A stretch of DNA of 64,000 bases from a virus. Taxonomy: Duplodnaviria > Heunggongvirae > Uroviricota > Caudoviricetes. The notes beneath the pieces were generated by a model, which made no database searches, was not told the DNA's origin, and was given only the letters and a program-made list of their open reading frames with translations. The position numbers and the translations under genes were made by a program. The stretch is taken from IMG/VR virus record IMGVR_UViG_3300029743_000281; one strand, given 5' to 3'. Shown here piece by piece: positions 5,199-22,875 of this stretch; position 1 is the stretch's first letter; every line of letters starts with the position of its first letter.

Positions 5199-6413
5199 TC
5201 AGTTCTTCTCAACTTCAATATGGTCTGGATATACTAGTACCTTCGATACTTCCTTTTCAAACCGGTCCTGATCCATGGTCGGCCACTCCAATTCTTGTAG
5301 GATTGCTTCGATAAGTTCCTTTTCCTTAACAAAGCGGTTGCCGCATCGCTCTTTACCTTTCCCCTTTTGCCGATTCCGGCAGTTCCACGCTTTATAGGTA
5401 CTCTGCGTCTTGGAACCACCAGCAGCTTTCAAAGTCCGGCGCAAAAAAGGGGCACCACATTCTCCACAGAATACTTTACCGTAGAGGAAGTGATGCTCCC
5501 TGTTCGTTTTATGAATACCGACCTGTGCCAGCTCTTTTCGTTTTTCCAGAATTTTTTGTGCCTTATCCCAGGTCTCCCGATCTATGATTGCTTCATGGTC
5601 ATCCCACAGATAATTAGATTCCACCTTCTGATTCGGATCGGGCTTCTTGGTCAGGTAGTCCAACGGAGCTTTCTTCTGTAACCGCTTGTCACCCACATAG
5701 GTTTCATTTGAAACCATGTACCGGAGAGTTTCTACTCCAAACCCCTTTTTACTGTGCAACGATTGAGCCCCCAGCTCTCCCAGCTCTTTAGCGATTTGTC
5801 TATAGCTCTCGCCTTCGATGAATCTGCGGAATACTTCCTTTACAATCCAAGCGTCCTTGTTGGGAACCAGTTCGCCATCCACACAGTCGTAGCCGAGAAT
5901 ACGATTATTGCCGAGATTGTACTCACCTCGTGCAAATCGGCTTGCATAAGCAGCCTTTTCATTTTCACTGATAGAATGACTTTCATCCTGTGCCACTGCT
6001 GCCAAGATGGATAGAACGAAATCACAGGTTGGATCATCTGTGCGGATATTTTGTTCCTCAAAAATGATTGTAACCCCCAGCGTTCTAAACCATTTGGCAT
6101 ACTGCTGGCAATCCACCATGTTCCGAGAAAACCGGGAAATACTCTTGCAAATGATAATATCCATCTTCTTGGCTTCGGCGGCCGCCACCATTTCCTGAAA
6201 ACCCGGTCGATTTTTCACTCGTGTAGCAGAATGCCGGTCAGCATATACCTTAACCAGTTCCCAGTCGGGATGACTTTGGATCAGCTCCTCGTAATACTTC
6301 TGCTGAGTTTCAAAGCTTTCATCCTGCTCGTTGCGAAAAGTGCTGACACGGCAATACGCGGCCACACGTTTCTTTGCCACTGGGATTTTTGGCATTACCT
6401 TTTTAATAATCAT
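5199..6413 (-). CDS. Large serine recombinase 2
   Basis: 'VAAYCRVSTFRNEQ...SISRFSRN' plus a C-terminal Cys-rich zinc ribbon. Confidence 0.9.
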   Translation of the reverse strand: MIIKKVMPKIPVAKKRVAAYCRVSTFRNEQDESFETQQKYYEELIQSHPDWELVKVYADRHSATRVKNRPGFQEMVAAAEAKKMDIIICKSISRFSRNMVDCQQYAKWFRTLGVTIIFEEQNIRTDDPTCDFVLSILAAVAQDESHSISENEKAAYASRFARGEYNLGNNRILGYDCVDGELVPNKDAWIVKEVFRRFIEGESYRQIAKELGELGAQSLHSKKGFGVETLRYMVSNETYVGDKRLQKKAPLDYLTKKPDPNQKVESNYLWDDHEAIIDRETWDKAQKILEKRKELAQVGIHKTNREHHFLYGKVFCGECGAPFLRRTLKAAGGSKTQSTYKAWNCRNRQKGKGKERCGNRFVKEKELIEAILQELEWPTMDQDRFEKEVSKVLVYPDHIEVEKN

Positions 6414-7914
6414 TTGCTGCTACTCCATTCTCCTTGGCACGGAGGTTCTTTGCCGTCTGCATGGCAGCATTACGCTGTGCCTCCCGCGTATTCACTGACT
6501 TCTTATCAGCCCGCACCACGCTCACTGGCTTGTTCTCGCTCCGCTGCGCACGGTCCAGCGAGTTCCGATAAAGCTCTGCCACATGGGTCGGTTCCTCAAC
6601 CTTGGATGCATTCAAAGCAACCTCGCTCTCCAGACCACATTTCCAGAACACCCGCATGGTGTCCTGTTTAAATTCAATGTGCCCCACCAAGTCATCCAGC
6701 CAGTAATACTGGACGGTGTCCAGTTTCGGGCTCTCTGCCTTGATTTCCAGCATCCTCTGCATAGCTACCGTCCGCTTCTTTTCCTTGATTTCAAGGGTGT
6801 TGTAGGCTTCCAGCAGGGCAGCATCCACAAGATACCCTTTGACCGCATACCCACGGCAGCCGTCCACATCAAAGCAGCCAAGGATGCGCTTGTGGCTGTT
6901 CACTTTCATGACCCTCGGAATCATCTTCTTCCCACACAGCGGGCAGACAATGTTTGTATCGTAGTAGGGATACCGGCTGTACTCCCCATGCGGAGATTTC
7001 AGTTTCATAATGCGCTGTACCTGCTGGTAGGTATGGCGGTCGATAATAGGAACATGGTGGTTCCTGACGTTGTAGACCGGAATCACAGTCGAGTCGTTCC
7101 GGACACTCCTATGGGAAATATGGTCAACACTGACCCATTTCTGAAGCCGCATATCACCAATGTACTTCTCGTTCTCAAGGAGATACTTAAGGGCGGTCTT
7201 GTTCCACGTCTGCTTACCCCTTGCGGAAGGAGCCTGTATAAAGGTCAGCTCATCCAGAATGTCCGTCATGGGGATGCCGTACTGGTACATTTTGAAAATC
7301 ATCCGCACAATGGCAGCTTCGTCCGGTTCAATGACAATTTCACCGTCCTTGGTCTTCCGATAGCCATAGGTCTTGGTCCAGCGCGACTCACCACTTTCAA
7401 ACCGCTTGCGAATGCCCCATTTCAGGTTTTCGGAGATGGAACGGCTTTCCTCCTGTGCAAAAGCCGCCATGACCGTCAGAATCAGTTCGGACACCGACGT
7501 TGCCGTATCCAGTCCTTCCTTTTCAAAGTAAAGCTGGACACCGATGCTCTGAAGATGGCGCACATAGGACAGACATTCGACCGTGTTGCGGGCAAATCGA
7601 GAGATACTTTTTGCCATGATATAATCGACCTTGCCTGCCTCGCAATCCTCCATCATCCGCAAGAACTCTTTACGCTTTTTCACGCTGGTTCCGCTGATGC
7701 CCTCATCGGCGTAGACATCCACCAACATCCAGCCAGGGTGCTGGGCAATCTTAGCGCGGAAGGCTTTCATCTGCTCCTCCAAGCTGTGGAGCTGAATCTC
7801 CTGGTCCGTGCTGACACGGGCATAGACTGCAACGCGGACTGTTTTCAAGGTTCTAAGTGCCTGAAAGCCAAGCTTCTGTACCCCAGTGTCTACCTTTTCT
7901 ACTGTAATTTCCAT
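6403..7914 (-). CDS. Large serine recombinase 3
   Basis: 'VAVYARVSTDQE...SISRFARN'; 503 aa. Confidence 0.9.
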   Translation of the reverse strand: MEITVEKVDTGVQKLGFQALRTLKTVRVAVYARVSTDQEIQLHSLEEQMKAFRAKIAQHPGWMLVDVYADEGISGTSVKKRKEFLRMMEDCEAGKVDYIMAKSISRFARNTVECLSYVRHLQSIGVQLYFEKEGLDTATSVSELILTVMAAFAQEESRSISENLKWGIRKRFESGESRWTKTYGYRKTKDGEIVIEPDEAAIVRMIFKMYQYGIPMTDILDELTFIQAPSARGKQTWNKTALKYLLENEKYIGDMRLQKWVSVDHISHRSVRNDSTVIPVYNVRNHHVPIIDRHTYQQVQRIMKLKSPHGEYSRYPYYDTNIVCPLCGKKMIPRVMKVNSHKRILGCFDVDGCRGYAVKGYLVDAALLEAYNTLEIKEKKRTVAMQRMLEIKAESPKLDTVQYYWLDDLVGHIEFKQDTMRVFWKCGLESEVALNASKVEEPTHVAELYRNSLDRAQRSENKPVSVVRADKKSVNTREAQRNAAMQTAKNLRAKENGVAANDY

Positions 7915-7926
7915 GTACTTTTCTCC

Positions 7927-8868
7927 TTATTGCCATTTGGGGTCGTTCAGGACCTTCTGCTGTTCATCATTGTATTTTTTTCGTCCGGAGTGGAGCAAGC
8001 CCATCTGAATCATGGTCTGCACATGCTCGAACTGTTCTCTGCTGACAATGCCTTCATGATGGTCCTCCAGATGAACTTGGGCGCGTTCTCCCCTGTTCCG
8101 CTTGCTGTATCGGTGGCCGTTCTTGCCGTAGGCCGTGTAGTAGCAATCCGTCCAGTAATCCCCCATGTATGCGACATTTTTCAGCATATTGGGTAGCCGA
8201 TTTCGATTCTGAGACCATGACACACCGGTATTTTCCTCATCCTCCATCTTATCCAAGCAAGCTCGGATATCTGCGTAGCAGACTCCTTTTGCCGCTTGGT
8301 CAAAGGCATAGCGGACACGGCGGGCCTCGGATTCTTCAATTCTCCATTCACCCTGCTTGTTGACCCTGCGAAAGCCGTAGGTCACACGGCCGGTCGGAAT
8401 GCCCTGGTCATGGAGATAGGCGATGCCTGCTCGAACATTCTCACCGATGCTCTTGGACTCCTCCTCGGCAATGATGGCAAGGATGTGGAAGAACAGCTCG
8501 CTCTGACCATCCATCGTGTTAATGCCCTCTTTTTCAAAAATGACCGGGATGCCCAGCTCTTTCAGCTGACGCACCACGGTCACACAGTCAAGCATATTTC
8601 GGGAGAAACGGGAGATGGACTTGGTGTAGATGACATCGATCTTGCCATCCACACAGTCCTGAATCATCTGTCGGAATTCCGGCCGACGCTGCGTACTGCG
8701 TCCGCTGCCCTCATCCGCATAAACCTTTACGAGTTCTTCATCGGGGTTATTGGAGAGCAGCTCCGTGAAGTAGCTTTTCTGAATCTCATAGGAGCCTTCC
8801 TGACACTCCATACCGGTGCTGACTCGGCAATAAGCCGCCGCCCTTTTGCGTTTCACTACGATTTCCAT
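7927..8868 (-). CDS. Large serine recombinase 4 (start trimmed to MEIVVKRKRAAAYCRVST)
   Basis: 'AAYCRVSTGMECQE...SISRFSRN'. RBS GGAGGATGACGCA before the internal ATG. Upstream TTGCTA-17-CATTAT promoter-like at ~8905-8935. Confidence 0.8.
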   Translation of the reverse strand: MEIVVKRKRAAAYCRVSTGMECQEGSYEIQKSYFTELLSNNPDEELVKVYADEGSGRSTQRRPEFRQMIQDCVDGKIDVIYTKSISRFSRNMLDCVTVVRQLKELGIPVIFEKEGINTMDGQSELFFHILAIIAEEESKSIGENVRAGIAYLHDQGIPTGRVTYGFRRVNKQGEWRIEESEARRVRYAFDQAAKGVCYADIRACLDKMEDEENTGVSWSQNRNRLPNMLKNVAYMGDYWTDCYYTAYGKNGHRYSKRNRGERAQVHLEDHHEGIVSREQFEHVQTMIQMGLLHSGRKKYNDEQQKVLNDPKWQ

Positions 8869-8984
8869 TGCGTCATCCTCCTTTGGGGTAGTCGTATAAT
8901 GCCGCATGTACGGCTGAATAGCAAGTTCTGTCGCCCAGATAAATCGGCATATTACCGACAAACTATCTGCCTGACAGAACGGCT

Positions 8985-9025
8985 GAAATGCAGCAGATGC
9001 GACAAATGTAAAGGGCTTCCCGGTC
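8985..9025 (-). terminator. Intrinsic terminator after the lysis operon
   Basis: Perfect 9-bp stem GGGCTTCCC-N9-GGGAAGCCC followed by TTTACATTTGT on the minus strand. Confidence 0.5.
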
Positions 9026-9110
9026 AAATTGGGAAGCCCAGAGTGCGACGTTTGAATCAGCCCGGTCTATGTGCCAGAGAGTGCTTTTGTGTCATCGCAA
9101 CGAGGTGATA

Positions 9111-10651: not shown

Positions 10652-11335
10652 TCAGGGCAGCAGCAGCTTCATGCCAATCAGGATGCAGTTGGACGTCAGC
10701 CCATTCAGCGCCCGGATGTCCGTGTAGCGAGTGCCGCTGCCGAGCTTGCGCTCTGCGATGCGCCAGAGGTTATCACCGGGAGCCACAGTATAGACCTCCC
10801 TGCCAACAAAGGCGTAAGCGTCCTCGGCATTCAGTACATACGCCACGCCGTCTTCTGCCTCCGGGCACTTGATCTTCAGCCAGTCCCCACAGTGTTCCAG
10901 AACATCCACAATGGAGTTCTTGGCGTAAACGGCAACCACTTCTGCATCCAGACTCGGTGTCTTTCGGATGTTCATCAGAGTTTTCAGCTTGCCATAAGCA
11001 ATGGCATCCGGCAAAGGTTCTGCAGACGGAAACTCCTCAAACGGGGTGCCCTCCGAAGGCTGCTCACCTTCCACTGCGGAGTTCTCCTCCGAAGTATTCT
11101 CCTCCGGGAAATCCGTTACAGGCTTCTCCTCAGCGTTCTCCTCCCGGGTCGTAGGCTCATCCGCCGGGTAGATCACCGTGCCGTCCTCGGCGAACACATA
11201 GCTGCCGGGGTTCTCGTCACACTTTGCCTTGGCATTCGCCAGCAGCTTATATGCACCGAGCTGGGATGCGTCATCGTTCCAATCGGCCCGAACACGATAA
11301 TAGCCGGTGTTCAGCTTTGCAGGATATTCGTTCAT
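10652..11335 (-). CDS. Cell-wall-binding protein with SH3-like N-module and C-terminal LysM
   Basis: N-terminal 45 aa nearly identical to the endolysin C-terminal module (YRVRADWND..PGSYVFAEDGTVIYP). LysM 'YTVAPGDNLWRIAERKLGSGTRYTDIRALNGL'. Confidence 0.7.
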   Translation of the reverse strand: MNEYPAKLNTGYYRVRADWNDDASQLGAYKLLANAKAKCDENPGSYVFAEDGTVIYPADEPTTREENAEEKPVTDFPEENTSEENSAVEGEQPSEGTPFEEFPSAEPLPDAIAYGKLKTLMNIRKTPSLDAEVVAVYAKNSIVDVLEHCGDWLKIKCPEAEDGVAYVLNAEDAYAFVGREVYTVAPGDNLWRIAERKLGSGTRYTDIRALNGLTSNCILIGMKLLLP

Positions 11336-11534
11336 AGTCGCTCCTCCATCAAAATTGAGGGAGAGGTTGCCCTCTCCCGATAGACTCCTTCATAAAGCGC
11401 ACAATTTTTTGGCTTTTGGGAGGTACTTTTCAGAAAACTTCTCTCATTATGCTTACTGAAATTCAGCATTTGGTACCCAGTTCTCCAAATTTTCCTCTCA
11501 TAAAGCACAATGAAAATAGCGAAAAGTTGTATAG

Positions 11535-11966
11535 TTACCCTTCTTTTTCGTCATTTTTCTCCGGGACGTGCTTCTCGTTGGTCAGCTGGATCAGCATATC
11601 CTTCAGCTTTTCGGGGATGGGAATACCGATCACAGCAGAATTTTCCAGAATGGACAGACCTTCATTGGACAGGTAGAAGAAGATCACGGCGGTGCGAATC
11701 GCTGCGCCGTTCTGAAGCACCTGCGTATCGATCACATTCGCCATACCTACCAGCAGGAAGATGCACACCTTCTTAGCAATTCCCTTAAAGCCCACTTCGC
11801 TGGACAGTTCCTTGCGGATACCCGCCGCAAGGATGCCGGTGAAGTAGTCGGTCACCACAAAGACGATGAGTGCGTAGAGGAAGCCATCAAAGCCTCCGAA
11901 AAACCAGCCGAGAAAACCGCCCAGTGCCGCAAAAGCAAACTGGAGCTTGTCGATTACATTTTGCAT
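11535..11966 (-). CDS. Phage holin (holin_4_1-like, multi-TM)
   Basis: Hydrophobic 'FAFAALGGFLGWFFGGFDGFLYALIVFVVTDYFTGILAA', immediately upstream of the lysin genes. Confidence 0.7.
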   Translation of the reverse strand: MQNVIDKLQFAFAALGGFLGWFFGGFDGFLYALIVFVVTDYFTGILAAGIRKELSSEVGFKGIAKKVCIFLLVGMANVIDTQVLQNGAAIRTAVIFFYLSNEGLSILENSAVIGIPIPEKLKDMLIQLTNEKHVPEKNDEKEG

Positions 11967-12073
11967 ACTTGTACCTTGCCTTTCCTGCCCTTTGCAGGGC
12001 ATAAAAAATAGGACGGTGCTCCGTCCTTGTGTAATGGTGTTCTATATAAACACAGCCGTGTGGCTGTGGGGTA

Positions 12074-14068
12074 TTAAATGGCGTTCAGCATACGAGCAAG
12101 ACTGGCTCCGATCAGCTCGTGTCCGATGGGATTCGGATGCACACCGTCAACGATATACTCCGCTTTTACCTTGGCATTTTTTGGACTCAGGCCGACCGTC
12201 CAGCCATCCAGTACAGCAAATCCGAACTCATCTCGTGCCACGTCGTAGATAGCCTGTTTGTACTGAGCCAGTGTAGCGCCCACCTTGTTAGCCGCCTCAC
12301 TGGAACGATGGAACGGTGTCAGGAAAACGATGCGCTTGCCGGGATACTTCTCGCAAAGTCCACTGCACAGTACATGAAGGGCTCCATAGAACGATACATC
12401 CGTAGTGTCAGCAATCGTTCCAAGCGCAACGCCTGTGCCGTAATCATTGGTGCCTCCTGCGATCACGACCATGTCTGCCGCAGCGTCCATACTCGAATAT
12501 CGCAGGGAAATTGCACCGGTCGGAGACTGGTACGAGGTACTGGAAATGCTGATGCCAGATACACCATAGTTTCGGCAGGTCGCTCCCAATTGCTCACAGG
12601 CGATTTCGCAATAACGCTTTTCAGCCCGCTTATTGGGAGAAGAACCACCCACAGGGGTATATGCTCCATAAGTGATAGAGTCCCCGATAAAGTTGATGGT
12701 CTTCCCTCTCCAGTTGGAGTTCTGCACCAGCAAAGCCTGTTCAATGGACTCCTTCACGGATTCGTTCCACTGAGCGAGCTTCTCCTCCACAGCCTTGTTC
12801 TGATTGTCAATAGCTGTCTTGTTCTCTGCCACCGCAGTCCGAATCGGCTCCAATTCAGTCTGCTTGTCCTGTTCGATCTTACTCAGAATCGCAGCCTCTC
12901 TCTGGACTGCCCTCCGGTCCCTATCTGCACCCACTCGGTTCAAAAGCTCCGTCAGGCAGTTCATACACGGCGTTCCTTCCGTATCACAAACCACAACCTG
13001 TGCTTTCGCTGCTTCCTCCTCGGTCAGATTGATATAGAGATACTTCGCAGAGCTGCGGTTCCATGCGGCGATCGATGTCAGCATCATAATGCCACCGTCA
13101 TCCATCTCCCTAAAATGCTGAGCAGGAACAATGGACAGTCGTCCGGCATAATGGAAGTCACCCTCCATACCACCCCAATTACCACGCATAATAGCTAGCT
13201 TGCCGCGCAGCCCATAAAAGAGGACATTCAGCTTGGCGTCATGGAGGTTCCCGGTCGGAATCAACAAATAATAGCCTTCGCCATTGGGATCAACACACCC
13301 CGACATATCATCGCTGGTATTCAGCCCACTAACATCAACATGACCCTTGTAAAAGTTACCGTCTCGAATCAAATCATAGTCGTTGCGCCATTCTTCGTGA
13401 ATATACTTTGCAAGACTTCCGTGAGCTACGCCATCCACAGTTTCAGCGTCGGCTCCTGCATAGTAGGCATCCACTGCCTTCAAGCGCTCACTCAGATTGG
13501 CATAGGTTTTTCCATCTGCATCCACACGGGCATCAAGGATTTCCGTATCAGTGGTATTACCACCGACAATACTGTTCATCCGAGCTGTAAGCTGATTCTT
13601 GGTGCTTTCCAGGTCCTTTCTCCCGGTTGCGAGATCATTTCTGGCAGTAGTCACCTGTCCGGTCAGGGTAGTGGTCGTTTCCTGAAGATTTTTGGCAATA
13701 CGCTGCTCGGTAGTTGAGAGTTCCTGACTGATAGCCGTATGCGTATCCGTCAGTTCTTTGCTGATAGCTGTATGAGTTTCCGAAAACTCCCTGCTCATAT
13801 CAGCCTTGGTCTGTGTAAGGTCAGTGTGCATCTGCTCGACATCAGCATCAACATCCTGCTCCAGATTCCGGACCTGTGCGGAATACTCCGAGCAGATTGC
13901 CCAGTATTCCTCGCTGCTCAAAGCAGTACCCGCCGGGACGGACTTACGGCTGATATAGCTGTCGCCTGTCTCCGGCTGATACACGATACTGAGCATCTCG
14001 TACTTGCTTCTCTTATTCCATGTGCCGCAATGCTTCGGCACAATGCGTCCGCCTACGAATTCACCCAT
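12074..14068 (-). CDS. Tail fibre/receptor-binding protein paralog A with C-terminal SGNH/GDSL hydrolase domain
   Basis: Shared N-terminus MGEFVGGRIVPKHCG plus coiled-coil repeats (ETHTAISKELTDTHTAISQELS). C-terminal 'FIGDSITYG...GGTNDY...DGVHPN'. Confidence 0.8.
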   Translation of the reverse strand: MGEFVGGRIVPKHCGTWNKRSKYEMLSIVYQPETGDSYISRKSVPAGTALSSEEYWAICSEYSAQVRNLEQDVDADVEQMHTDLTQTKADMSREFSETHTAISKELTDTHTAISQELSTTEQRIAKNLQETTTTLTGQVTTARNDLATGRKDLESTKNQLTARMNSIVGGNTTDTEILDARVDADGKTYANLSERLKAVDAYYAGADAETVDGVAHGSLAKYIHEEWRNDYDLIRDGNFYKGHVDVSGLNTSDDMSGCVDPNGEGYYLLIPTGNLHDAKLNVLFYGLRGKLAIMRGNWGGMEGDFHYAGRLSIVPAQHFREMDDGGIMMLTSIAAWNRSSAKYLYINLTEEEAAKAQVVVCDTEGTPCMNCLTELLNRVGADRDRRAVQREAAILSKIEQDKQTELEPIRTAVAENKTAIDNQNKAVEEKLAQWNESVKESIEQALLVQNSNWRGKTINFIGDSITYGAYTPVGGSSPNKRAEKRYCEIACEQLGATCRNYGVSGISISSTSYQSPTGAISLRYSSMDAAADMVVIAGGTNDYGTGVALGTIADTTDVSFYGALHVLCSGLCEKYPGKRIVFLTPFHRSSEAANKVGATLAQYKQAIYDVARDEFGFAVLDGWTVGLSPKNAKVKAEYIVDGVHPNPIGHELIGASLARMLNAI

Positions 14069-14148
14069 GATTTCATTCTCCCTTCTGCTTGCTCAAAGGC
14101 TTACCAACGTCTTTTTCGCAAGCAGGGGGGGAGGATGAAAATCAGCTT

Positions 14149-14199
14149 TCAGGAGTACCCCCCCCCGAAAATTTCTTTCACATTATCGTTCATATTCAT
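14149..14199 (-). CDS. Candidate 16-aa upstream ORF (MNMNDNVKEIFGGGYS) spanning the G9 tract
   Basis: RBS GGAGTGATAACA then ATG. The GGG GGG GGG codons coincide with the homopolymer. Confidence 0.3.
   Translation of the reverse strand: MNMNDNVKEIFGGGYS
14158..14166 (-). repeat. Homopolymeric G9 tract (C9 on plus strand) in the fibre A-B intergenic module
   Basis: Read directly. A C7 run on the coding strand 26 nt downstream is its partial complement. Confidence 0.9.
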
Positions 14200-14214
14200 T
14201 GTTATCACTCCATT

Positions 14215-16833
14215 TCACAGAATCAGTCGTTCCAGCAGGCTCTGGAAGGACGCCGCGATGATCTCATGCCCCTTTTCATCGGGATGCACGCCATTGCCAC
14301 CGTCCTTAGAGAATGCGAGCTTGCGGAAATTCTCATCATCGGGTCGCAGGTTGGATTCGTGGTACAGATCCAGGCATGGGATGCTGCGCCGCTTGCAGAT
14401 CTCAACGATTGCCTCCGAGTACTTCGCCATACCGCAGGTTGTCTTAGAAGGCATACTACCGACCCACGGAGTCGGGGTCACGATACCCAGCCGAGCCAGA
14501 GGAATGCGTTCATAGATGGCATCGATGGTTGCGTTGATGCAGCCACATATCGTATCGGTTCCCGTATCCGTAACAGTTCCCAGCGACTGGTCAGACGAGA
14601 GATCGTTGCCGCTGCCAAAGATGGTGATCACATCGGCATCCTCCGGGATATCACTGACGCGCTGGTAAAATGCTCGGTTGATATCTTTCCGACGCATATA
14701 ACCAGTCCCACTGACACCGAGGTTCACAGTCTTAATGCCTGTCTTTTCGGCAATATAATCGAAGTAGTGCTTCGTGGTACGGCTATTGCTTTCCGTCAAG
14801 CTGTCACCAAGGCATACCCATGTGCGACCATACCACTTAGGTTTCATACCGATAAAATAGCCACGAGTCATAGGCTGGATGCCGCAACTCTGCATACCGT
14901 TGATGCAGGCAATCCGAATAGAAGCTGCTCGTGCCGGAGAAGTCACAACCTTATTCTCAATCTTGCGATCAGTATTGCCCGTGTTGTTTTCGCCGCCGAC
15001 TCGATTTCCGTTCACATCGTAAAACGCATAGAGGCCGTACCCTGCTTTTCCGGCTGCGCTGATACAGTACGGTGTATACGGTTCCACAGTGATAGGCTCG
15101 GACAGCCGGTAATTCGTGTTACCAGTCGGATCTTTCACTATAGCACCTGTTGTCGGATTCAGGAGCATTCCGTTGTTTTCGGTAACTTTGACAGCTTCTC
15201 CAATAGCATATTCGTAGTTCTCGTCCACGATTTTGCTTGCCAGATGGTTTTCCAAGCCGGAGATCCTGCTATCGCGTTCTGCCGCCTGTTCTGCTGCTGT
15301 GCCGACCAGCTCTGCCGAAGGATAGCTGATTCGTGTAACCTTTTTGATTACACCCGTGAAATGGTTGTTCTCCACCCATGCGATGCGTACCGTTGCGGCA
15401 GTTGCCGGAACAGGAGAAATGCGGTCACGATAACCCGCAACTCCATCCGTCTTTTCCTGATAGCCGCCAACTACCTTGTCATCCGCATCGTAGAAAGCAT
15501 ACAGATACTTATTCCAGCCGCCGGAAACCGTAAAAGCATACAGTTCACCGGGGTTGACCGGAATCGGATCGGATACACGGAACGCTGTATTCTCGGATGC
15601 CAAGGGATGGACTTCACCCGCCTTCTCATTGATGCAGCGGTTTGCGGTGTAGGTGAACTCCAGTGCCTCACCCTCAACAACGGCGGCACTAAGCAGTGTA
15701 TTCTGCTCCCCGGTTGCCGCTGCAATCAGGTCGGCCTTCGCCTTTTCCAGACCAGTCTCCACCGCAACCATCCGAGATTCAGGTTTCTCGTTTAGCTCAT
15801 TGGTCGGGAAAAGGAAACGAGTCACTTCCTCCACCTTACCCATAAAATTCGAAACCTGAATCCAGGTGATACGCATACTGACTGCCCCACCCGGCGCGAT
15901 TACGATTCGATTCTCGATTTTACCGGACTTGTTATCCGGCGCGATCTCACCAGCGAGAACATTCTCGTCGCTGTCATAGAAGGCATAGTAGTATTTCTTC
16001 CAGCCACTTGACGCGGTGATAATATACACATGGCCTGCCACAACAGGGATCATCTCCGATGTGTGCCAATGGCCGTCGCTTTCATTCGTCAGCGTACCCA
16101 CCGTGCCGTTCAGATTGATGAAGGTCCGGCTCGTGGAAGCAAAGGTCAGTTCCTTTGTCTCACGACCAGTCGCCTCATCCAGAAGCTGGGACACGATTGT
16201 AGTAAGCCAATCATCCCACAGACCGCGTGTCTTTTCCGCAGAGCGCATTGCTTCGCCTAGTGAGGTATGGGTCGTACCCTGGTTGTCCACGCGGGCATCC
16301 AGAATCTCACTGTCAGTGGTCATGCCTCCGGCGATACTGTCCATCCGCTTATTCAGCGTGGTCTTAGCATCATTCAGTTCCTTACGGCCTGTATTCAAAT
16401 CAGTTTGGGCCAGTTCGACCTTGCCGGAAAGAGTTTCTGTAGTCTGCTGCAGGCTCTCCTGCATACGGCTTTCCGTTTCTGTGAGCTCCTGACTGATAGC
16501 CGTATGCGTATCCGTCAGTTCTTTGCTCATGGCTACATGAGTTTCGGAAAACTCCTTGCTCATGTCTGCCTTAGTCTGTGCAAGATCAGTGTGCATCTGT
16601 TGAACATCGGCATCCACATCCAGTTCCAGTTGATGCAGCTGCGCCGAATACTCCGCACAGATAGCCCAGTATTCCGCACTGTCCAACAACGTACCCGCCG
16701 GGACGGACTTGCGGCTGATATAGCTATCGCCCGTCTCCGGCTGGTACACGATACTGAGCATCTCGTACTTGCTGTTCTTGCTCCATACGCCGCAATGCTT
16801 CGGCACAATGCGGCCGCCTACGAATTCACCCAT
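14215..16833 (-). CDS. Tail fibre/receptor-binding protein paralog B (three internal ~100-aa repeat domains plus C-terminal SGNH hydrolase)
   Basis: Same N-terminus. Repeated 'GGWNKYLYAFYD...' domains. C-terminal 'CLGDSLTES...GSGNDL...DGGNGVHPD'. Confidence 0.8.
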   Translation of the reverse strand: MGEFVGGRIVPKHCGVWSKNSKYEMLSIVYQPETGDSYISRKSVPAGTLLDSAEYWAICAEYSAQLHQLELDVDADVQQMHTDLAQTKADMSKEFSETHVAMSKELTDTHTAISQELTETESRMQESLQQTTETLSGKVELAQTDLNTGRKELNDAKTTLNKRMDSIAGGMTTDSEILDARVDNQGTTHTSLGEAMRSAEKTRGLWDDWLTTIVSQLLDEATGRETKELTFASTSRTFINLNGTVGTLTNESDGHWHTSEMIPVVAGHVYIITASSGWKKYYYAFYDSDENVLAGEIAPDNKSGKIENRIVIAPGGAVSMRITWIQVSNFMGKVEEVTRFLFPTNELNEKPESRMVAVETGLEKAKADLIAAATGEQNTLLSAAVVEGEALEFTYTANRCINEKAGEVHPLASENTAFRVSDPIPVNPGELYAFTVSGGWNKYLYAFYDADDKVVGGYQEKTDGVAGYRDRISPVPATAATVRIAWVENNHFTGVIKKVTRISYPSAELVGTAAEQAAERDSRISGLENHLASKIVDENYEYAIGEAVKVTENNGMLLNPTTGAIVKDPTGNTNYRLSEPITVEPYTPYCISAAGKAGYGLYAFYDVNGNRVGGENNTGNTDRKIENKVVTSPARAASIRIACINGMQSCGIQPMTRGYFIGMKPKWYGRTWVCLGDSLTESNSRTTKHYFDYIAEKTGIKTVNLGVSGTGYMRRKDINRAFYQRVSDIPEDADVITIFGSGNDLSSDQSLGTVTDTGTDTICGCINATIDAIYERIPLARLGIVTPTPWVGSMPSKTTCGMAKYSEAIVEICKRRSIPCLDLYHESNLRPDDENFRKLAFSKDGGNGVHPDEKGHEIIAASFQSLLERLIL

Positions 16834-16853
16834 GATTTCATTCTCCTTCCTGC

Positions 16854-16964
16854 TTACATAAAGGCTTCAAAGCGTCTTTGTCGGCAAGCAGGAGGAGGAT
16901 GGAAATCATTTGTCAGGGAGTACCCCCCCCCGGAAATTTTTACCATAATCACGTTCTTATTCAT
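16854..16964 (-). CDS. Candidate 36-aa upstream ORF (MNKNVIMVKISGGGYS...) spanning the second G9 tract
   Basis: RBS AGGAGCTTTC then ATG; homologous to the 14149..14199 uORF. Confidence 0.3.
   Translation of the reverse strand: MNKNVIMVKISGGGYSLTNDFHPPPACRQRRFEAFM
16923..16931 (-). repeat. Homopolymeric G9 tract (C9 on plus strand) in the fibre B-C intergenic module
   Basis: Read directly. The intergenic segment is ~80% identical to 14069..14214. Confidence 0.9.
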
Positions 16965-16977
16965 GAAAGCTCCTATT

Positions 16978-19900
16978 TTAGTTTTGCGGCAGTACACATA
17001 TTGCCATATTTCTAAAAGCAACATCTGCTATCTGCATATATCCTTCAATTGCCGGATGAACACCATTCGTTCCGACTGCCTCGGTAATCTTATTCCTTGT
17101 GTTAACCTGTTTGCTCGTTGCTGGCATATTGTATTCGCTATCAAACTGTGTGGCAACGTTCAAAAACTCCACATAATTCTTAAACTCTTCATCATTTGCC
17201 AAAGACTGATATGCCAAATTCATTCCCATTACGCTCCTACTAAGTGCATAGGGATTAGAATATGCACTATTCGCGCCATAGTTAGCTCCAGTTCCTCCAT
17301 TGAAAGACGGCATTTGAATTCCCATTACCTTTACCTTCGCTTCAGGGAATTCATCATGCAGTTTTCTAATGAACTCTTTCGCATTTTCTACATGAATTTT
17401 GACTGTATAAGCATCGGGTGTAGAGCAATATCCGCCAAGAGCATTCCAGCTGAGCAAGGTATAGACAAAATCTATCCCTGCAAAGCCATTTCTTTCACAA
17501 TATGATTTAAAGCTGATCTTATCTTGCACAGCATCCCAAAACGGATTACCTTCAGCATAACCTGTACTCGTAAAGGCGATTGCTTCCGGGTGAGTCGCAT
17601 TTGACAAATGAGTTAAGTTCCCTCCCCCCACAGGCATTTTACCTGTGTGGTTCTGAAACCTGGTAAACTTAATTCTTTTCTTCTCAATCGTCTCCATTTG
17701 CCAGACATTTCCATTTTCATCACGCCAGAGACTGTGTTGGTCCGTATTGTCTTTGTCATGTGTCGAATACACCCACATTCCGAGACTTGTGTTTGATGGT
17801 TTGGCAAGGTAACTAGCCCAAGTCCAGCCACCATAACCTTCGTAGCCTATTTGGCCTCTTTTCTTTGTTCCAATTAACTCAATATTGTTTCTACCCAGAC
17901 CGCTTGGCGAACCACCCGTTTCGAGGACACGTCTTGCCAATTCAACACACCACTCACCACCTGTCGTCAAGCTGTCCCCTATACATAGAATATTTTTCTT
18001 TTCTATCGGGCTCTGCCCTGCTTTTCTGATAGCAAGAGTAGTCGTTGCAGAGGCAATAATTCGGTCACTGCAATCTCGAACATTCAGCGTCAATTTATGT
18101 TCACCCTCTTGATCAGCTTTAGGTGTCACTTCAAAATAGCGATTTGTATTTTTTCCGATATCACAAATGCACTCCAAATTAAAGTTATATGGATTTGGAT
18201 GTTCTACAATGCCACGGTAGAAAAGTTGCAGTGTATCATCAACAACGCCATATATCTTGTCTGGCAGAACTACTCTCGGAGGAGTTTCAATGTTCAGCTT
18301 TTCAATTTTCTCATCAAAGCCCTGTTTAACACTCGAAATGGTTTCATCGATTGCAAGTTGCTTGATTGCTGCATCAATTCTCTGCTGGACATTTTCGCTT
18401 TGAGGATTGCTCAGTTGGGCTTTATCCAAGAGGTTTTCTACTACCTCAATGACTTGATCAAGCTGATGCTTCCTCAGTTGATATATACTCTCCAGGTACT
18501 CAACAAACATATCAAGTCTATCCTGATTGATCAGCTCTGTATCATGAATTGGAAACCAGTCTTTCAGTTCTTTGTCAACTCTGAACGGTCCATCTCCTGC
18601 CTGACATGTGTAACAGACTGCGCCGTAATCAGGAGGATTAAGATTCTTGCCTGTATTGCCAAACATAACACTAATATGCTGATCACAGGTAAACCCCGCA
18701 TAAAGTTCTACTGAATTCTCATTTTCAATGGGTGTTGAAAAACGAAACTCAATCTTTCTTCTCTCACCAGATTTGATATGGAAACCTTCTCTTGTTTCGT
18801 CTGCAAGAATAGCCCCCTTATGATTGTTTACAGAAACCACACAGCGTATTTTTTCAATATAGGCATTGTTTTCTTTGCGATTTTCTATCGTAAAAACTAG
18901 AGTGTTGAAATGCTTGGCTTTCCCAATTGGAGCTGCCCAACCAGTAAAGGTTGAAGTTGTATAACTCAAAACAGCATAGGATACAGGCACAAGATTTTGC
19001 TCATCCGATACAGCCCATGAATCCTGAAATGAGTTTTTCAGCTTTGCCAAGCTTTCTTTTATATTTTTCTCAACTTCTCGCCACTTTGCTTTATTCGGAT
19101 TATAGCCGGTCAGCCATACAGCCAAATTGTAACGTCCCCCCGTTGAACAATCTTCCATTTTGGCAAACTGACCGTTCGTGGTATACAAACTACCCGAAGT
19201 TGCTTCTTGACTACCAAACACGTTTGTGCAAATCACATCCGCTTGTAGAAGGATGAAGACTTTTCTTCCTTGTTCAAAGAACAACCCATTCACATCACAG
19301 TGAACACGTTTTTCATCGTTAGGCTCAATTGTGACATTGAGGTACTTGTTAAAGGAGATTTTCTCTTCACTAGCATCATCGAATGCTATTGCAACACGAA
19401 TTTGATTGATTCTTTCACTACGTGCCTTGACGATAAATTCAATTCCTGTTACAAGAATACTTTCGTCGATCAAATACGAGGAAACCCAGCCGCTAAAGGT
19501 CGATGAATCATATGGATAGTACAATTCTCCTCCGTGGATTTTCTTTACTTCTGTTTCTAAAAGCTCCTGAACATACTTTTCAGCCAGTTGTTCATGCACA
19601 GCCTCCCGCATCTCACCGGCTCTCAGAGCTCGTATCGCATTTCCAAGAGTATTATGCGTATGACCATACGAATCAACACGAGCATCCAGAATCTCCGCAT
19701 CCGAGGTCTTTCCCCCGGCAATGCTGTCCATCCGTTTGTTCAACGTATCCTTGGCATCCTTCAGTTCCTGCCGGCCGGTGTTCAGGTCGGACTTGGCCTG
19801 TTCGACCTTGCCGGTCAACTCTGAACTGGTCTGTTCCAGATTCTCATTGACTCGCTGTTCTGTTTCCGACAACTCCTGACTGATTGCCTTGTGCGTATCA

Positions 19901-20220
19901 TCCAGTTCCTTGCTGATCGCCGTATGGGTCTCCTTGAACTCCTGACTCATGGCATTTTTGACTGCCGTAACATCACTGTGCATCTGCTGGACATCCACGT
20001 CCACGTCCTGTTCCAGCTTCCGCATCTGTGCGGAATAATGGGCACACAGCGACCAGTAACTCTCATCTGCCAGCGAGATGCCCACAGGCACAGCCTTACG
20101 GCTGATATAGCTGTCACCGGTCTCGCCGTCCAGTACGATCATCAAGGGTTCATAGGTTTTCTTCTGATCCCAGACACCTACATGGTCCGGTACCACCCGT
20201 TTGCCAACAAACTCTCCCAT
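16978..20220 (-). CDS. Tail fibre/receptor-binding protein paralog C (1080 aa) with C-terminal SGNH hydrolase domain
   Basis: Same N-terminus MGEFVGKRVVPDHVG. 'ILCIGDSLTTGG...GVHPAIEGY'. Confidence 0.8.
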   Translation of the reverse strand: MGEFVGKRVVPDHVGVWDQKKTYEPLMIVLDGETGDSYISRKAVPVGISLADESYWSLCAHYSAQMRKLEQDVDVDVQQMHSDVTAVKNAMSQEFKETHTAISKELDDTHKAISQELSETEQRVNENLEQTSSELTGKVEQAKSDLNTGRQELKDAKDTLNKRMDSIAGGKTSDAEILDARVDSYGHTHNTLGNAIRALRAGEMREAVHEQLAEKYVQELLETEVKKIHGGELYYPYDSSTFSGWVSSYLIDESILVTGIEFIVKARSERINQIRVAIAFDDASEEKISFNKYLNVTIEPNDEKRVHCDVNGLFFEQGRKVFILLQADVICTNVFGSQEATSGSLYTTNGQFAKMEDCSTGGRYNLAVWLTGYNPNKAKWREVEKNIKESLAKLKNSFQDSWAVSDEQNLVPVSYAVLSYTTSTFTGWAAPIGKAKHFNTLVFTIENRKENNAYIEKIRCVVSVNNHKGAILADETREGFHIKSGERRKIEFRFSTPIENENSVELYAGFTCDQHISVMFGNTGKNLNPPDYGAVCYTCQAGDGPFRVDKELKDWFPIHDTELINQDRLDMFVEYLESIYQLRKHQLDQVIEVVENLLDKAQLSNPQSENVQQRIDAAIKQLAIDETISSVKQGFDEKIEKLNIETPPRVVLPDKIYGVVDDTLQLFYRGIVEHPNPYNFNLECICDIGKNTNRYFEVTPKADQEGEHKLTLNVRDCSDRIIASATTTLAIRKAGQSPIEKKNILCIGDSLTTGGEWCVELARRVLETGGSPSGLGRNNIELIGTKKRGQIGYEGYGGWTWASYLAKPSNTSLGMWVYSTHDKDNTDQHSLWRDENGNVWQMETIEKKRIKFTRFQNHTGKMPVGGGNLTHLSNATHPEAIAFTSTGYAEGNPFWDAVQDKISFKSYCERNGFAGIDFVYTLLSWNALGGYCSTPDAYTVKIHVENAKEFIRKLHDEFPEAKVKVMGIQMPSFNGGTGANYGANSAYSNPYALSRSVMGMNLAYQSLANDEEFKNYVEFLNVATQFDSEYNMPATSKQVNTRNKITEAVGTNGVHPAIEGYMQIADVAFRNMAICVLPQN

Positions 20221-20237
20221 TTTACTTCCTTTCCGGC

Positions 20238-20987
20238 TTACGCCTCATTGTATCTCACGATCAAGTGACCTTCATCGTCCATCTCAAAAATCAGACCCAG
20301 CGCGTCCCAGCTCTGGAACACCAGATGTCCATCCATATTGATGGACGAGGTGACTATGCCCTCCTCGATATCCTTCGCCACCTTATCAATGGTGCTGGAC
20401 ACAGACCCCTGCGCCAGTCCCAGCTTATCATCCGAGCGCATCACGAGGTATCCGTCATTGGTGATGAGGAATTCCAGGATGCCCTTGGCGGCAGCATTCA
20501 ACGCCTGCTTATAGGTCAGCGTGGCGATTTTACCGTTCTTGACCGCTGCACGGGCCACATTCAGCACCAGACTGAACGAACCAATCACATCTCCCTCATC
20601 GGACAGAAGGTAGATGTCAATCGGGAATCTGCCGTATATTTCGGTCATAAAGGATGTGACCGTCAGGATGACCGCACCGTCATCCACGAACACAAGGTCC
20701 GGGCGGGTCTCGCTGGAATACTGGAACACTGCACCGTCCGGCCGAGTAGCTGAGTAGCTGACGATGGTATCCTTACTGACCTTATACTCCAGCGAGTTCT
20801 GATACAGCCGACACCGCACTTTTCGGGCTTGGTTGTCGTACTGCTTGACCGGGATGTGGGTCGGGATCAGGTTCTCTGTGAATGACAGTTCCACGTCCTG
20901 AAACACCGTGAACGACTTAGTCACCAGTGCCTCCTGCGCCGGTTTCTCCGCTGTCTGTACCACTGCTTTCGCCTTCCTGTTTGCCAT
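20238..20987 (-). CDS. Hypothetical tail/baseplate protein (start taken at MANRKAKAV)
   Basis: Sits between Tal and the fibres. Overlaps the Tal 3' end by ~70 bp. Confidence 0.5.
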   Translation of the reverse strand: MANRKAKAVVQTAEKPAQEALVTKSFTVFQDVELSFTENLIPTHIPVKQYDNQARKVRCRLYQNSLEYKVSKDTIVSYSATRPDGAVFQYSSETRPDLVFVDDGAVILTVTSFMTEIYGRFPIDIYLLSDEGDVIGSFSLVLNVARAAVKNGKIATLTYKQALNAAAKGILEFLITNDGYLVMRSDDKLGLAQGSVSSTIDKVAKDIEEGIVTSSINMDGHLVFQSWDALGLIFEMDDEGHLIVRYNEA

Positions 20988-22857
20988 CTTCTTCGCCTCC
21001 TCCCTCTGTCGGGGTATCCGGGTCGGGCTCAGGTTCCGGTGGCTCATAGCCTACCGTCTGCCAAATTTCTCCGTCCCACAGCTTCAGCCGCAGGGCGGTT
21101 GTATCGACCCAGAGTGCATTTGTTTTCGGATTCTTTGGTGCTGCCTCCTGCGCACAGATGGGCGGAGCATACCGCTCATCCAGTTTCGCCAGCAGCGTGT
21201 CGGACAGCTTATCCGCTGTTCCGTACCGCTCGTCTAGGTTTTTGATGAGTTCTTCCGACAAAGCAGATGCCGTCTTATATCGCTCATCCAACTGTGCAAG
21301 CAGCACCTCGGACAGCTTATCTGCCGTACCGTAGCGTGCGTCCAGGCTTTTGATGAGTTCTTCAGACAAGGCGGATGCCGTCTTATACCGCTCATCCAAC
21401 TGTTCGAGCAGTTCTTCAGTCAGTTCTCCGGCTTTCTTATAGCGTTCATCCAGCTCCTGCAGGGTGTTTTCCAGCAGCAACGCCGTCTTGACCGGGGAAT
21501 CGTCCCGCTCCCAGCCGTAGCCCCATGTCTTACCGCCATCGGTGGAGATGAAAAACCCATCCGGGCTGTTCTTCCACGCAAAGGTGGACTTTGCCAGTGA
21601 CCCGGCATTGAAGGCATACCGCACGGTTTCACCGTTCACCTCGGTCACGTTCTGGTAGTGCAGACCGAACAGACCGGCCAGCAGAGTACCGTCATAGACC
21701 ATCGACACGGAAATGCCGCCGATCTGCTCACCCATGCTGGTTTCCACACGGAGCGCGGTGTTGTAGGCTTCATTGGCTGTGTTTCGGATGTTGCTCAGTG
21801 CTGTAGTCAAAGACGAGTTCCGGCTGCTGACCGTAGAGTTCGACAGCGTAATGCCATCGTACCGTTCCAGCAGACAGTCGTATTGTGTTTCGGTCACCTT
21901 GGAGCTGACCTCGATGCCGAGCTTGGAAATAAACACATGGACGGTATCGCACAGACTCACCTGCTCCGCTTCCACCACATCCTCATAGTCCGGGGTATTC
22001 CAGAGCTGGATAAAGTCGATGTCGATATCCACCTGCGGCTCGGTCAGGCTGGTGTTCTTCAGATAATCCTGTGCAAAAGAGCGCATCATCTCATCCGTGG
22101 GCTTATCCTGAAATCCACTAGTGCAATCTAGTACCGTGATCTTCTGGTACGGAACTGACCGCTGCTCCACCAGCACCACCTTCTCCGGCAACTCCGTCAC
22201 CTCGCCGGTCTCGGAATTCTGCCAGTACGGATGTACACCCGTGATGACGCTCTCAATGTTCTTCTCCATCTTGAAGTCGATGAGGTTTTTGCCGTAAACG
22301 ATATGCACGCCGTGGTCTGAGCCCCGGTGATGATGGAGCTTGACCGTGTATCGGTCCCACTCGTACTCTCCGCCAAAGGTGTCCAGCACCGAGCCGTCGA
22401 TACCGCCGAGGCAGTTCCGAAAAGAGGACGGCACCGAGAGCCGAAAAGAGGCGCTGGAGGAGATATCCGTCCAGACCTCAAAGGGGCACTCGGATGCCGC
22501 GTGGTTTCCCAGCCCCGCCAGCGCACCGGTGCAGCCGGTCGTGGCAAAAGGAGAAACCGTAATGAAGTTTAGCTGATACGAGATGTGCCTTGCCTTGACA
22601 GTCAGCTTGCCATCAATCGGCGTTGCGATTTTGTAGATACGGAACGGCTGCGATCTGCCTGTGTCGGATGGCTTTGCAAGGATGATGCTCCCTTCTTCCA
22701 GCTGATCCGCATGGATACCATCTGCTGGGTAAACCATCTCCAGCTCAAAGCTGCCGTTTCGTTTTTCCGTCACGATGCAGGACTGTGCATCTGCCAGCTT
22801 GCCGATGCCATTGTTGTCAAACTTAGACTCCATGGATGCATACAGACAAGGGATCAT
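20917..22857 (-). CDS. Tail-associated/minor structural protein (Tal-like) with an internal stalk of ~23-aa tandem repeats
   Basis: N-terminal 'SKFDNNGIGKLADAQSCIVTEKRNGSFELEMVYP', typical of the phage minor-structural-protein N-terminal region. Repeats LDERYKTASALSEELIKxLDxRYGTADKLS x4. Confidence 0.75.
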   Translation of the reverse strand: MIPCLYASMESKFDNNGIGKLADAQSCIVTEKRNGSFELEMVYPADGIHADQLEEGSIILAKPSDTGRSQPFRIYKIATPIDGKLTVKARHISYQLNFITVSPFATTGCTGALAGLGNHAASECPFEVWTDISSSASFRLSVPSSFRNCLGGIDGSVLDTFGGEYEWDRYTVKLHHHRGSDHGVHIVYGKNLIDFKMEKNIESVITGVHPYWQNSETGEVTELPEKVVLVEQRSVPYQKITVLDCTSGFQDKPTDEMMRSFAQDYLKNTSLTEPQVDIDIDFIQLWNTPDYEDVVEAEQVSLCDTVHVFISKLGIEVSSKVTETQYDCLLERYDGITLSNSTVSSRNSSLTTALSNIRNTANEAYNTALRVETSMGEQIGGISVSMVYDGTLLAGLFGLHYQNVTEVNGETVRYAFNAGSLAKSTFAWKNSPDGFFISTDGGKTWGYGWERDDSPVKTALLLENTLQELDERYKKAGELTEELLEQLDERYKTASALSEELIKSLDARYGTADKLSEVLLAQLDERYKTASALSEELIKNLDERYGTADKLSDTLLAKLDERYAPPICAQEAAPKNPKTNALWVDTTALRLKLWDGEIWQTVGYEPPEPEPDPDTPTEGGGEEDGKQEGESSGTDSGETGAGGTGD

Positions 22858-22875
22858 CCCGCTCCACCTCCTTCC

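Follow-up and report, generated by a model that had tools for sequence, protein, structure and literature searches.

A hypermutable G tract in a leader ORF as a candidate frame-gated switch of auxiliary tail fibre genes in gut prophages

The window analyzed here, a stretch of 64,000 nt from a tailed phage (Caudoviricetes; IMG/VR record IMGVR_UViG_3300029743_000281), contains only two homopolymers of at least 8 bases. Both are runs of nine G, and each of them lies between two tail fibre genes. What is a run of G doing ahead of a fibre gene, and does its length matter to the fibre? Slipped-strand mispairing is an established behaviour of homopolymer tracts, and a sequence-only reading of the locus had proposed that a change in the length of these runs would alter the frame or the stop of a short upstream ORF, as well as a promoter or an RNA structure, and might switch the downstream fibre. 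When the window was shuffled, at least two G9 runs were found in 14 of 100 shuffles. Two such runs per 64 kb are therefore not improbable, and what makes them significant is that they occupy homologous positions, together with the comparison with relatives.

All genes around the two runs are on the minus strand and make up the part of a siphophage-type prophage that encodes the distal tail and lysis (Table 1). The three fibre paralogs have about 200 N-terminal residues in common and differ in their central parts. The C-terminus of the 1080-aa fibre shows an SGNH-like/GDSL-like motif by eye and had no Pfam match. This first fibre follows the 269-aa ORF after a spacer of 17 nt and has no leader module. 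The genes for a holin, a LysM protein, an endolysin and serine recombinases lie downstream of the fibres. Because terminator-like hairpins follow the last fibre gene, we believe that the fibre genes close the structural operon. The same hairpins suggest that the lysis genes are transcribed apart, and the silencing of a fibre need not harm lysis. The sole match in a species-level genome collection was a Lawsonibacter asaccharolyticus MAG; several metagenome matches came from assemblies labelled human-gut, and the others carried no label. The comparison of the fibre region with GenBank phages by megablast gave no match. The covariance models of Rfam 15, applied to positions 11000-24000, had no match in the modules and only two sub-threshold chance hits elsewhere.

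Table 1. Positions of the two leader modules, their parts and the neighbouring genes in the 64,000-nt window (SD, Shine-Dalgarno sequence).
Feature	Position	Strand	Remark
Tape measure	23666-29539	(-)	upstream end of the listed gene order
Dit-like ORF	between tape measure and Tal protein	(-)	
Tal protein, Prophage_tail domain	20917-22857	(-)	
269-aa ORF	20238-21047	(-)	directly precedes fibre paralog 1
Fibre paralog 1, 1080 aa, N-terminus MGEFVGK...	16978..20220	(-)	
Module 2, ahead of the 872-aa fibre	16834..16977	(-)	homologous to module 1
SD AGGAG of leader ORF 2	16970..16974	(-)	5 nt before the leader ATG; read from the sequence
Leader ORF 2, observed long state, 36 aa, MNKNVIMVKISGGGYSLTNDFHPPPACRQRRFEAFM (MNKNVIMVKISGGGYS...FM), then stop	16854..16964	(-)	crosses the anti-SD arm; TAA 20 nt before the fibre ATG
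G9 tract, module 2	16923..16931	(-)	G9, G10 or G11 in relatives of this module type
5' (anti-SD) arm of predicted hairpin 2, AUGAUUUCCAUCCUCCUCCUGCUUGC	16884..16909	(-)	
3' arm of predicted hairpin 2	16832..16857	(-)	fibre SD GGAG (16843-16846), spacer and AU of the fibre AUG
Fibre paralog 2, 872 aa, N-terminus MGEFVGG...	14215..16833	(-)	Pfam GDSL/SGNH hydrolase C-terminal domain
Module 1, ahead of the 664-aa fibre	14069..14214	(-)	homologous to module 2
SD GGAG of leader ORF 1	14208..14211	(-)	8 nt before the leader ATG; unpaired in the predicted fold
Leader ORF 1, observed short state, 16 aa, MNMNDNVKEIFGGGYS, then stop	14149..14199	(-)	ends ahead of the hairpin; TGA 80 nt before the fibre ATG
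G9 tract, module 1	14158..14166	(-)	G7 to G16 in near-identical relatives
TGA, second short-frame stop, module 1	14142..14144	(-)	at the hairpin base; kept in 54 of 55 modules
C7 run, module 1	14125-14131	(-)	26 nt downstream of the G9 tract; within the anti-SD arm
5' (anti-SD) arm of predicted hairpin 1, UGAUUUUCAUCCUCCCCCCCUGCUUGC	14118..14144	(-)	includes the C7 run
3' arm of predicted hairpin 1, GCAAGCAGAAGGGAGAAUGAAAUCA	14068..14092	(-)	fibre SD GGGAG (14078-14082) and first base of the fibre AUG
Fibre paralog 3, 664 aa, N-terminus MGEFVGG...	12074..14068	(-)	Pfam GDSL/SGNH hydrolase C-terminal domain
Two terminator-like hairpins with T-tails	12010..12068	(-)	directly 3' of the last fibre gene, before the holin gene

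The two fibre-fibre intergenic regions were aligned and are homologous, as the sequence-only reading had stated. The homology spans the stretch between the leader ATG and the fibre ATG and runs on into about 600 nt of shared N-terminal fibre coding sequence. The other elements named in that reading, which were a G9 run on the coding strand and a short RBS-equipped ORF in each region and a C7 run downstream of the first tract, were also present at their positions (Table 1). The feature is larger than the span first given for it and comprises a whole module of about 145 nt, with the leader RBS, the leader ORF, the G tract, an anti-SD arm, a loop and an arm that contains the fibre SD and AUG. The leader ORF, whose RBS is predicted to be accessible, begins just past the stop codon of the preceding fibre and holds the G tract. 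The tract lies in a separate ORF, 89-91 nt ahead of the fibre ATG, and the fibre ORFs stay intact at any tract length.

Homologous modules were sought with sequence patterns in IMG/VR and in one collection each of metagenomes and genomes. At first 55 modules were obtained, and a later pass gave 56; altogether about 57 came from viral, metagenome and Lawsonibacter contigs, and every one of them had an uninterrupted G tract. The tract lengths ranged from G6 to G16; G9 and G10 occurred 18 times each, and G7, G8, G11, G12, G13, G15 and G16 were also found. A generic pattern (G7...CATCCTCC...GGAGAATGA) retrieved no loci from IMG/VR beyond those already collected. When loci were compared over up to 800 nt of flank, 52 pairs had no more than 1% mismatch, and the tract lengths were unequal in 36 of them. 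Seven loci whose 800-nt flanks matched with 0 mismatches had tracts of G7, G8, G8, G9, G10, G10 and G10, which indicates that the tract is hypermutable. After the removal of duplicates, there were 45 haplotypes on 36 flank backgrounds, of which 21 had the leader ORF in the long form and 24 in the short form. On six flank backgrounds the tract occurred in different lengths, such as 7/8/9/10 and 9/13/15. Invariance of the tract across related phages, which the sequence-only reading had named as part of what would speak against its proposal, was not what we found.

Errors of sequencing or assembly in homopolymers could also produce differences in length. Many of the metagenome contigs have low coverage (several only 1.5-6x), so that single tract lengths may hold an assembly error, and two whole contigs end at the G tract. 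The range from G6 to G16 is not open to the same doubt. It comes from many independent studies and assemblers, with one long-read assembly among them, and the same lengths recur in independent samples. The C5 and A6 runs in the same flanks, which served as an internal control, had no indels in the same contigs, and this argues against a generic homopolymer error. We therefore regard error as an extremely unlikely source of the variation. The tract is long enough to slip (at least about 7 units), its polymorphism is far above the background mutation rate, and its length alters a reading frame, which are properties of a contingency locus. The two contigs that end at the tract may be a hint of frequent switching within a clonal population. 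We are highly confident that it is a genuine hypermutable contingency tract.

The consequence of a length change can be read directly downstream of the tract. Two of the three frames run into a stop almost at once (...GGG UAC UCC UGA and ...AGC UGA), 71-84 nt ahead of the fibre AUG. The third frame continues for a further 25 codons or so. Its typical stop, inside GGAGAAUGAAAUCAUG, is a UGA 4 nt ahead of the fibre AUG; sublineages have a UAA 20 nt ahead of it, a UGA 24 nt ahead of it or a UAG 16 nt beyond the first base of the AUG. Two short frames and one long frame were found in this way in all 55 modules, except one with two long frames. The leader ORF moves between these frames with tract length, as had been expected from the sequence, and it has 14-19 aa in the short forms and about 30 to 48 aa in the long form. 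The typical relatives have a C5 run in the anti-SD arm, and their long-frame stop 4 nt ahead of the AUG is a TGA that corresponds to 14073-14075; module 1, with its C7 run, would have the long-frame stop at 14093-14095, which is 24 nt ahead of the AUG. In the window, module 1 was observed in a short frame and module 2 in the long frame, the latter because an extra C (UACUCCCUGA) is combined with G9. Leader ORFs of 14-47 codons, and with them the state of the downstream fibre, are missed by standard gene-calling pipelines.

An imperfect hairpin of some 22 bp, with a CCUCC-type anti-SD as its 5' arm, was predicted for the sequence that separates the short-frame stops from the fibre AUG. In general, the 5' arm UGAUUUUCAUCCUCC(C)nUGCUUGC pairs with a 3' arm of the type given for hairpin 1 in Table 1. 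When folded in isolation, the core of hairpin 1 had an energy of -32.0 kcal/mol (z = -5.6) and the 81-nt core of hairpin 2 had an energy of -32.9 kcal/mol (z = -6.6), and in both cases none of 200 shuffles was as stable. The consensus fold of 24 distinct sequences contained 32 pairs, with 97.5% of the cells paired compared with 39-46% in slid controls. Compensatory changes were found at two pairs (U-A to C-G and C-G to U-A); this covariation is modest because the main lineage is closely related. The RBS of the leader itself was unpaired in the predicted fold. The fibre SD and start codon are thus paired, in the predicted folds, with sequence inside the upstream ORF, as in translational coupling. 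In its long frame, the upstream ORF also ends close to the downstream start or overlaps it, both in the main lineage and in the divergent lineages L201, L208 and L214, which are described below.

The length of the tract might also act through structure itself, either as a promoter spacer, as a tuner of a terminator or antiterminator, or as a graded anti-anti-SD. Some features of the locus agree with this. A weak terminator-like hairpin (UUUUCGGGGG...CUCCUGAAAG, then GAUUUUCA) spans the tract of module 1. At G10 or longer, the tract of module 1 is predicted to pair with the C7 run (4.8-9.8 expected pairs), which lowers the probability of a paired fibre SD to 0.73-0.87, and in lineage L201 the tract pairs with a downstream CCCC in the predicted fold. 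However, when the tract was varied in silico from G5 to G16, the probability of a paired SD was 0.95-1.00 in typical C5 modules and 1.00 at each length in module 2, so that length alone does not free the RBS. We therefore rejected the tract as an RNA rheostat in typical modules. A direct stem between G9 and C7, which the sequence-only reading had considered, was not borne out as the operative structure at G9 either, since only 0.16 pairs between the tract and the C run are expected there, and the C-rich stretch is the anti-SD arm instead. The C7 run is found in this window only; most relatives have C5, and L154 has C6. The suggested change of a promoter was not supported, nor was a promoter spacer of the type known in Neisseria opc/porA or Bordetella fim, as a scan of the coding strand with the sigma-70-type consensus found no such hexamers flanking the tract at either module. 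For the terminator version, 8 terminator-like sites were found in the region against 8.3 expected in shuffles, and the flanking half of the weak stem that spans the tract of module 1 is not conserved in KKKKS-type modules. The action through structure would also leave the conserved one-in-three arrangement of the frames unexplained, and we give it a small probability.

We prefer a mechanism in which the reading frame opens the hairpin. In the auxiliary fibre genes, by which we mean the paralogs downstream of fibre 1, the SD and AUG would be locked in the predicted hairpin. Slippage in DNA replication would alter the length of the tract far faster than point substitution alters the sequence; the rate is seen in the relatives, and slippage is its probable cause. 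The tract length sets the frame of the leader, and two frames stop before or at the hairpin base, while the third traverses the anti-SD arm. Only ribosomes in the long frame would melt the hairpin and expose the SD, either for fresh initiation or for termination-reinitiation, and fibre synthesis would follow. With the leader in a short frame, the hairpin would stay closed, and the fibre would be off or low. A slipped-strand switch that would act on fibre expression in this direction by frame-gated translational coupling is, in our judgement, the probable function of the module. On this basis, the 872-aa fibre is predicted to be ON, and the 664-aa fibre is predicted to be OFF or low in this window. 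A ribosome at the second short-frame stop, which lies at the hairpin base, might partly open the hairpin, and that frame could be leaky.

The G run might instead serve mainly for slippage by RNA polymerase or for ribosomal frameshifting. At any tract length in the DNA, the leader would then be translated as a fixed mixture of short and long forms and the fibre made at a fixed low ratio, with the polymorphism of the DNA as a by-product. Long homopolymers are known sites of transcriptional slippage, and such recoding could operate on top of the variation in the DNA. However, a fixed recoding site should keep one length, whereas the DNA tract differs among otherwise identical genomes and falls in all three frames. 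The tract also has no heptameric slippery-site architecture. We consider it very unlikely that recoding is the role of the run.

If the long frame is translated, its product of about 40 aa could itself be a functional small protein, such as a fibre assembly factor, and the tract would then phase-vary that protein. The long ORF is open in all lineages, a central segment (LLKADFHPPP) is conserved in the main lineage, and in lineage L214 the leader ORF was called as a 46-aa gene. On the other hand, this central segment, the sole conserved part of the long leader, coincides exactly with the anti-SD arm of the RNA, and the N-terminal part of the leader varies and has a low complexity. For the C-terminal half, the frame depends on the sublineage, with three in use (...ACKKDVGKPLSKQKGE, ...CLRKRRWKAFEQAEGRMKSWVNS and ...ACRQRRFEAFM); these frame differences result from differences of 1-2 nt in the C-rich run, and the peptides are unrelated. 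This indicates that translation itself matters rather than the peptide. The long peptides of five divergent lineages also have nothing in common after the glycines. We attach very little probability to a small protein as the target of the switch.

Divergent lineages were sought by a profile search with the N-terminal domain of the fibre, followed by inspection of the context. Five further lineages were found, with tracts of G11 in L201, G12 in L208, G9 in L212, G11 in L214 (grouped with L216) and G11 in L215. The fibre N-terminal domains of L201 and L208, for which identity was measured, were 42-43% identical to that of the window, and the intergenic sequences were largely unrelated. All five lineages have a leader ORF with its own RBS and a tract of G9-G12 followed by UA, and in all five, two frames stop before the anti-SD arm and exactly one frame crosses it or reaches the fibre start. 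In L201, L208 and L214 the long frame overlaps the fibre start (AUGNNUAA); where such an overlap occurs, in these lineages or in a sublineage of the main one, the stop is 8-16 nt beyond the first base of the AUG. The long frames of L212 and L215 end directly behind the anti-SD, 56-65 nt ahead of the fibre ATG. Coupling by reinitiation would therefore not be universal, and only the melting of the hairpin fits all lineages. The predicted probability of a paired SD was approximately 1.0 in four of the five divergent lineages, and L208 was the exception, with no predicted sequestration of the SD. Over 204 nt, the tract is the only difference between L214 (G11, long) and L216 (G9, short). Among the IMG/VR relatives of L208-type and L201-type fibres, none had the module.

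The module is always ahead of a downstream paralog and never ahead of fibre 1. In 12 related loci with fibre-1-type starts, which directly follow a homologue of the 269-aa ORF, a G tract was present upstream in none. At its 3' end, the module is similar to the sequence where the 269-aa ORF meets fibre 1 (GTAAGCCGGAAAGGAA compared with GTAAGCAGGAAGGAG). A derivation of the leader from the 3' end of the 269-aa ORF was considered and rejected, as the similarity was marginal, with a shared CTGATTTT and a similar stop/RBS junction. The fibre genes are split in some relatives, and given this, not all copies may be functional.

These data bear on whether the tract has a function at all. The leader might be a decaying remnant of the duplication of the paralogs that contains a hypermutable tract without function, and the fibre would then be translated regardless. 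The likeness of the 3' end of the module to the junction upstream of fibre 1 suggests such an origin by duplication, and both states are common, with 21 long against 24 short distinct haplotypes. But an unselected homopolymer should be interrupted or lost, and about 57 modules together with five further lineages keep at least six G's in an ORF with its own RBS. The short-frame stops, the open long frame and the SD hairpin have also been retained or re-created where the sequence is unrelated. We consider a tract without function unlikely.

Homopolymer variation has been described in other phages. As summarized in PMC12633550, the Campylobacter Fletchervirus phages have hypermutable polyG tracts (7-11 G) in receptor-binding protein (RBP) genes (Sorensen et al. 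2021, Cell Rep 35:109214). The module resembles this system in that the G tract is encoded by the phage, varies in length (within and between phage populations in Fletchervirus), and would diversify the receptor-binding equipment. The Fletchervirus tract, however, is inside the RBP coding sequence and truncates the protein, whereas the tract described here is in a separate leader ORF of 14-47 codons, the fibre is never frameshifted, and the proposed effect is on translation initiation through a hairpin that sequesters the SD. The host also differs, being Campylobacter in the one case and a Gram-positive gut anaerobe in the other (Lawsonibacter, Oscillospiraceae-type prophage). In T2/T4 and other phages, homopolymer contingency loci have been proposed as reversible frameshift hot spots that serve bet-hedging, and such repeats are reported to be under-represented in tail-fibre genes (Gomez, Barrick & Waters, bioRxiv 2025, PMC12633550). 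Those loci are mostly short runs (at least 6 bases) within ORFs and inactivate the gene that carries them, whereas a long conserved tract would here control the fibre from outside its gene.

A hairpin that sequesters an RBS and is opened by translation of an upstream ORF is known from classic cases in operons and RNA phages. A Salmonella intergenic small ORF is described in PMC8092293 as promoting the translation of a Mg2+ transporter. As in translational coupling, the downstream SD and AUG are here predicted to be paired inside an upstream ORF that ends near the downstream start, and exposure of the RBS would need the transit of a ribosome. The known coupling is constitutive or responds to physiology, whereas here a mutable repeat would gate it and produce a heritable stochastic switch.

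Repeats in leaders are also known from bacteria. In Haemophilus influenzae, lex2A carries repeats and is a small ORF upstream of lex2B, which is similar to the placement of the tract in an upstream small ORF here. The 5'-UTR of H. influenzae hmw1A has heptamer repeats with an RNase III hairpin (PMC12721329). As in the module, the repeat is outside the effector gene, and it acts through the mRNA leader, as is proposed here, but the hmw switch is graded by repeat number and RNase III processing and not by reading frame. Neither hmw1A nor lex2 is a phage system, and neither has a frame-gated anti-SD hairpin. Our search of the literature found no paper on a repeat-bearing leader ORF that gates an anti-SD hairpin before a phage fibre gene. 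The parts are known (poly-G variation in phages, repeats in leaders and ORFs that unmask an RBS), and their combination ahead of a fibre gene appears to be new. We lean, by a small degree only, towards an undescribed class of phage contingency switch in which each auxiliary SGNH-esterase fibre would be toggled independently and heritably, with the design conserved or re-created in at least six divergent lineages of gut Clostridia prophages.

The means by which temperate gut phages meet variable host surfaces are known mainly as diversity-generating retroelements and invertible segments. In the papers found, poly-G phase variation of phages has been described mainly inside coding genes of Campylobacter phages, has been noted in BPP-1 and PB1-like phages, and was recently reported in T-even phages. 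If our interpretation is true, the element in Gram-positive gut prophages is of a different design, in which the fibre gene stays intact and its translation is gated. This would make the switch cleanly reversible and modular, with one module for each extra fibre, and tract length modulo 3 would be a predictor of the fibre state that can be read from the sequence. Phage or prophage lineages would differ heritably and reversibly in each auxiliary SGNH-esterase fibre, which would amount to bet-hedging on the recognition of the host surface, and stacked modules, such as the two in this window, would generate combinatorial types of virions.

The C-rich run in the anti-SD arm, the 5' hairpin arm that pairs with the fibre SD, was polymorphic in length: it was C5 in most relatives, C6 in the related contig L154 and C7 in the window only, while CCTCCTCCC or CCTCCTCC occupied its place in other sublineages. 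Depending on the C run, the long leader frame, which reads across this arm, stopped ahead of the fibre ATG, at a distance of 4, 20 or 24 nt, or 16 nt beyond it; the C7 version additionally makes pairing of the G tract with the C run possible at G10 or longer. In the window and at the equivalent codons of relatives, the long frame reads the anti-SD arm as His-Pro-Pro-Pro, a motif that was missing from distant lineages. We speculated that a polyproline stall on the anti-SD arm would hold the anti-SD within the ribosome and lengthen the exposure of the RBS.

Two complete metagenome contigs, L203 and L154, terminated in the G tract or 9 nt away from it. This is the expected behaviour of an assembler at a heterogeneous or low-quality homopolymer; these ends lend anecdotal support to length heterogeneity within samples. 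In the distant relative L210, the 92-nt spacer before a fibre-1-type gene contained a 17-nt unit (GACTGAYACAGCACCAC-like) in approximately three tandem copies, and this sequence pattern may represent a different kind of repeat-based variable element.

The 872-aa fibre carries three internal repeats in its central part, recognized by eye from the motif ...G(W/Y).(K/L)Y(Y/L)YAFYD..., and these probably represent carbohydrate-binding modules arranged in tandem upstream of the GDSL/SGNH domain. The module-controlled fibre of several relatives was broken into at least two ORFs, as fibre 1 sometimes was; these could be true frameshifts of decaying prophages or assembly errors. The 3' end of module 2 (..GTAAGCAGGAAGGAGAATGAAATCATGGG) was similar to the sequence where the 269-aa ORF meets fibre 1 (..GCGTAAGCCGGAAAGGAAGTAAAATGGG), and this similarity suggests that the module may stem from duplication of a fibre along with the tail end of its upstream gene. 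The 269-aa ORF as listed shares 131 nt with the end of the Tal gene; relatives point to an internal Met (MANRK.../MASRK...) as its true start, which would give a protein of approximately 249 aa.

The last of three adjacent ORFs by the endolysin gene, the one that was scanned, is a large serine recombinase according to Pfam. In the related locus L212, Resolvase/Recombinase Pfam matches were found in all three ORFs that follow the endolysin in tandem, which raises the possibility that this tandem arrangement is conserved.

Coordinates of the features described (window positions unless a relative is named)
Feature	Position	Strand
C7 run, module 1 anti-SD arm	14125-14131	minus
C6 run	L154:41-46	
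His-Pro-Pro-Pro codons	16890-16898	
Contig end at G tract	L203:9131-9140	
Contig start at G tract	L154:1-17	
Tandem 17-nt units	L210:200-291	
872-aa fibre	14215-16833	minus
Split fibre	L010:7108-9102	
Split fibre	L131:5038-7032	
Split fibre	L135:7624-9618	
Split fibre	L201:7532-9032	
Module 2 3' end	16834-16870	
269-aa ORF/fibre 1 junction	20221-20260	
269-aa ORF	20238-21047	
Tal	20917-22857	
269-aa ORF/Tal overlap	20917-21047	
Three ORFs by endolysin, span	5199-9027	minus
ORF by endolysin	5199-6413	minus
ORF by endolysin	6403-7914	minus
ORF by endolysin (large serine recombinase)	7927-9027	minus
Promoter-like match, inside fibre 1 3' end	17128-17156	minus

Promoter-like sites were overall fewer than the shuffle expectation. 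The best match of the region, TTGCCA-17-TACAAT (10/12), lies ahead of module 2 at a distance of approximately 150 nt, and a genuine promoter there could provide the auxiliary fibres with a transcript of their own.
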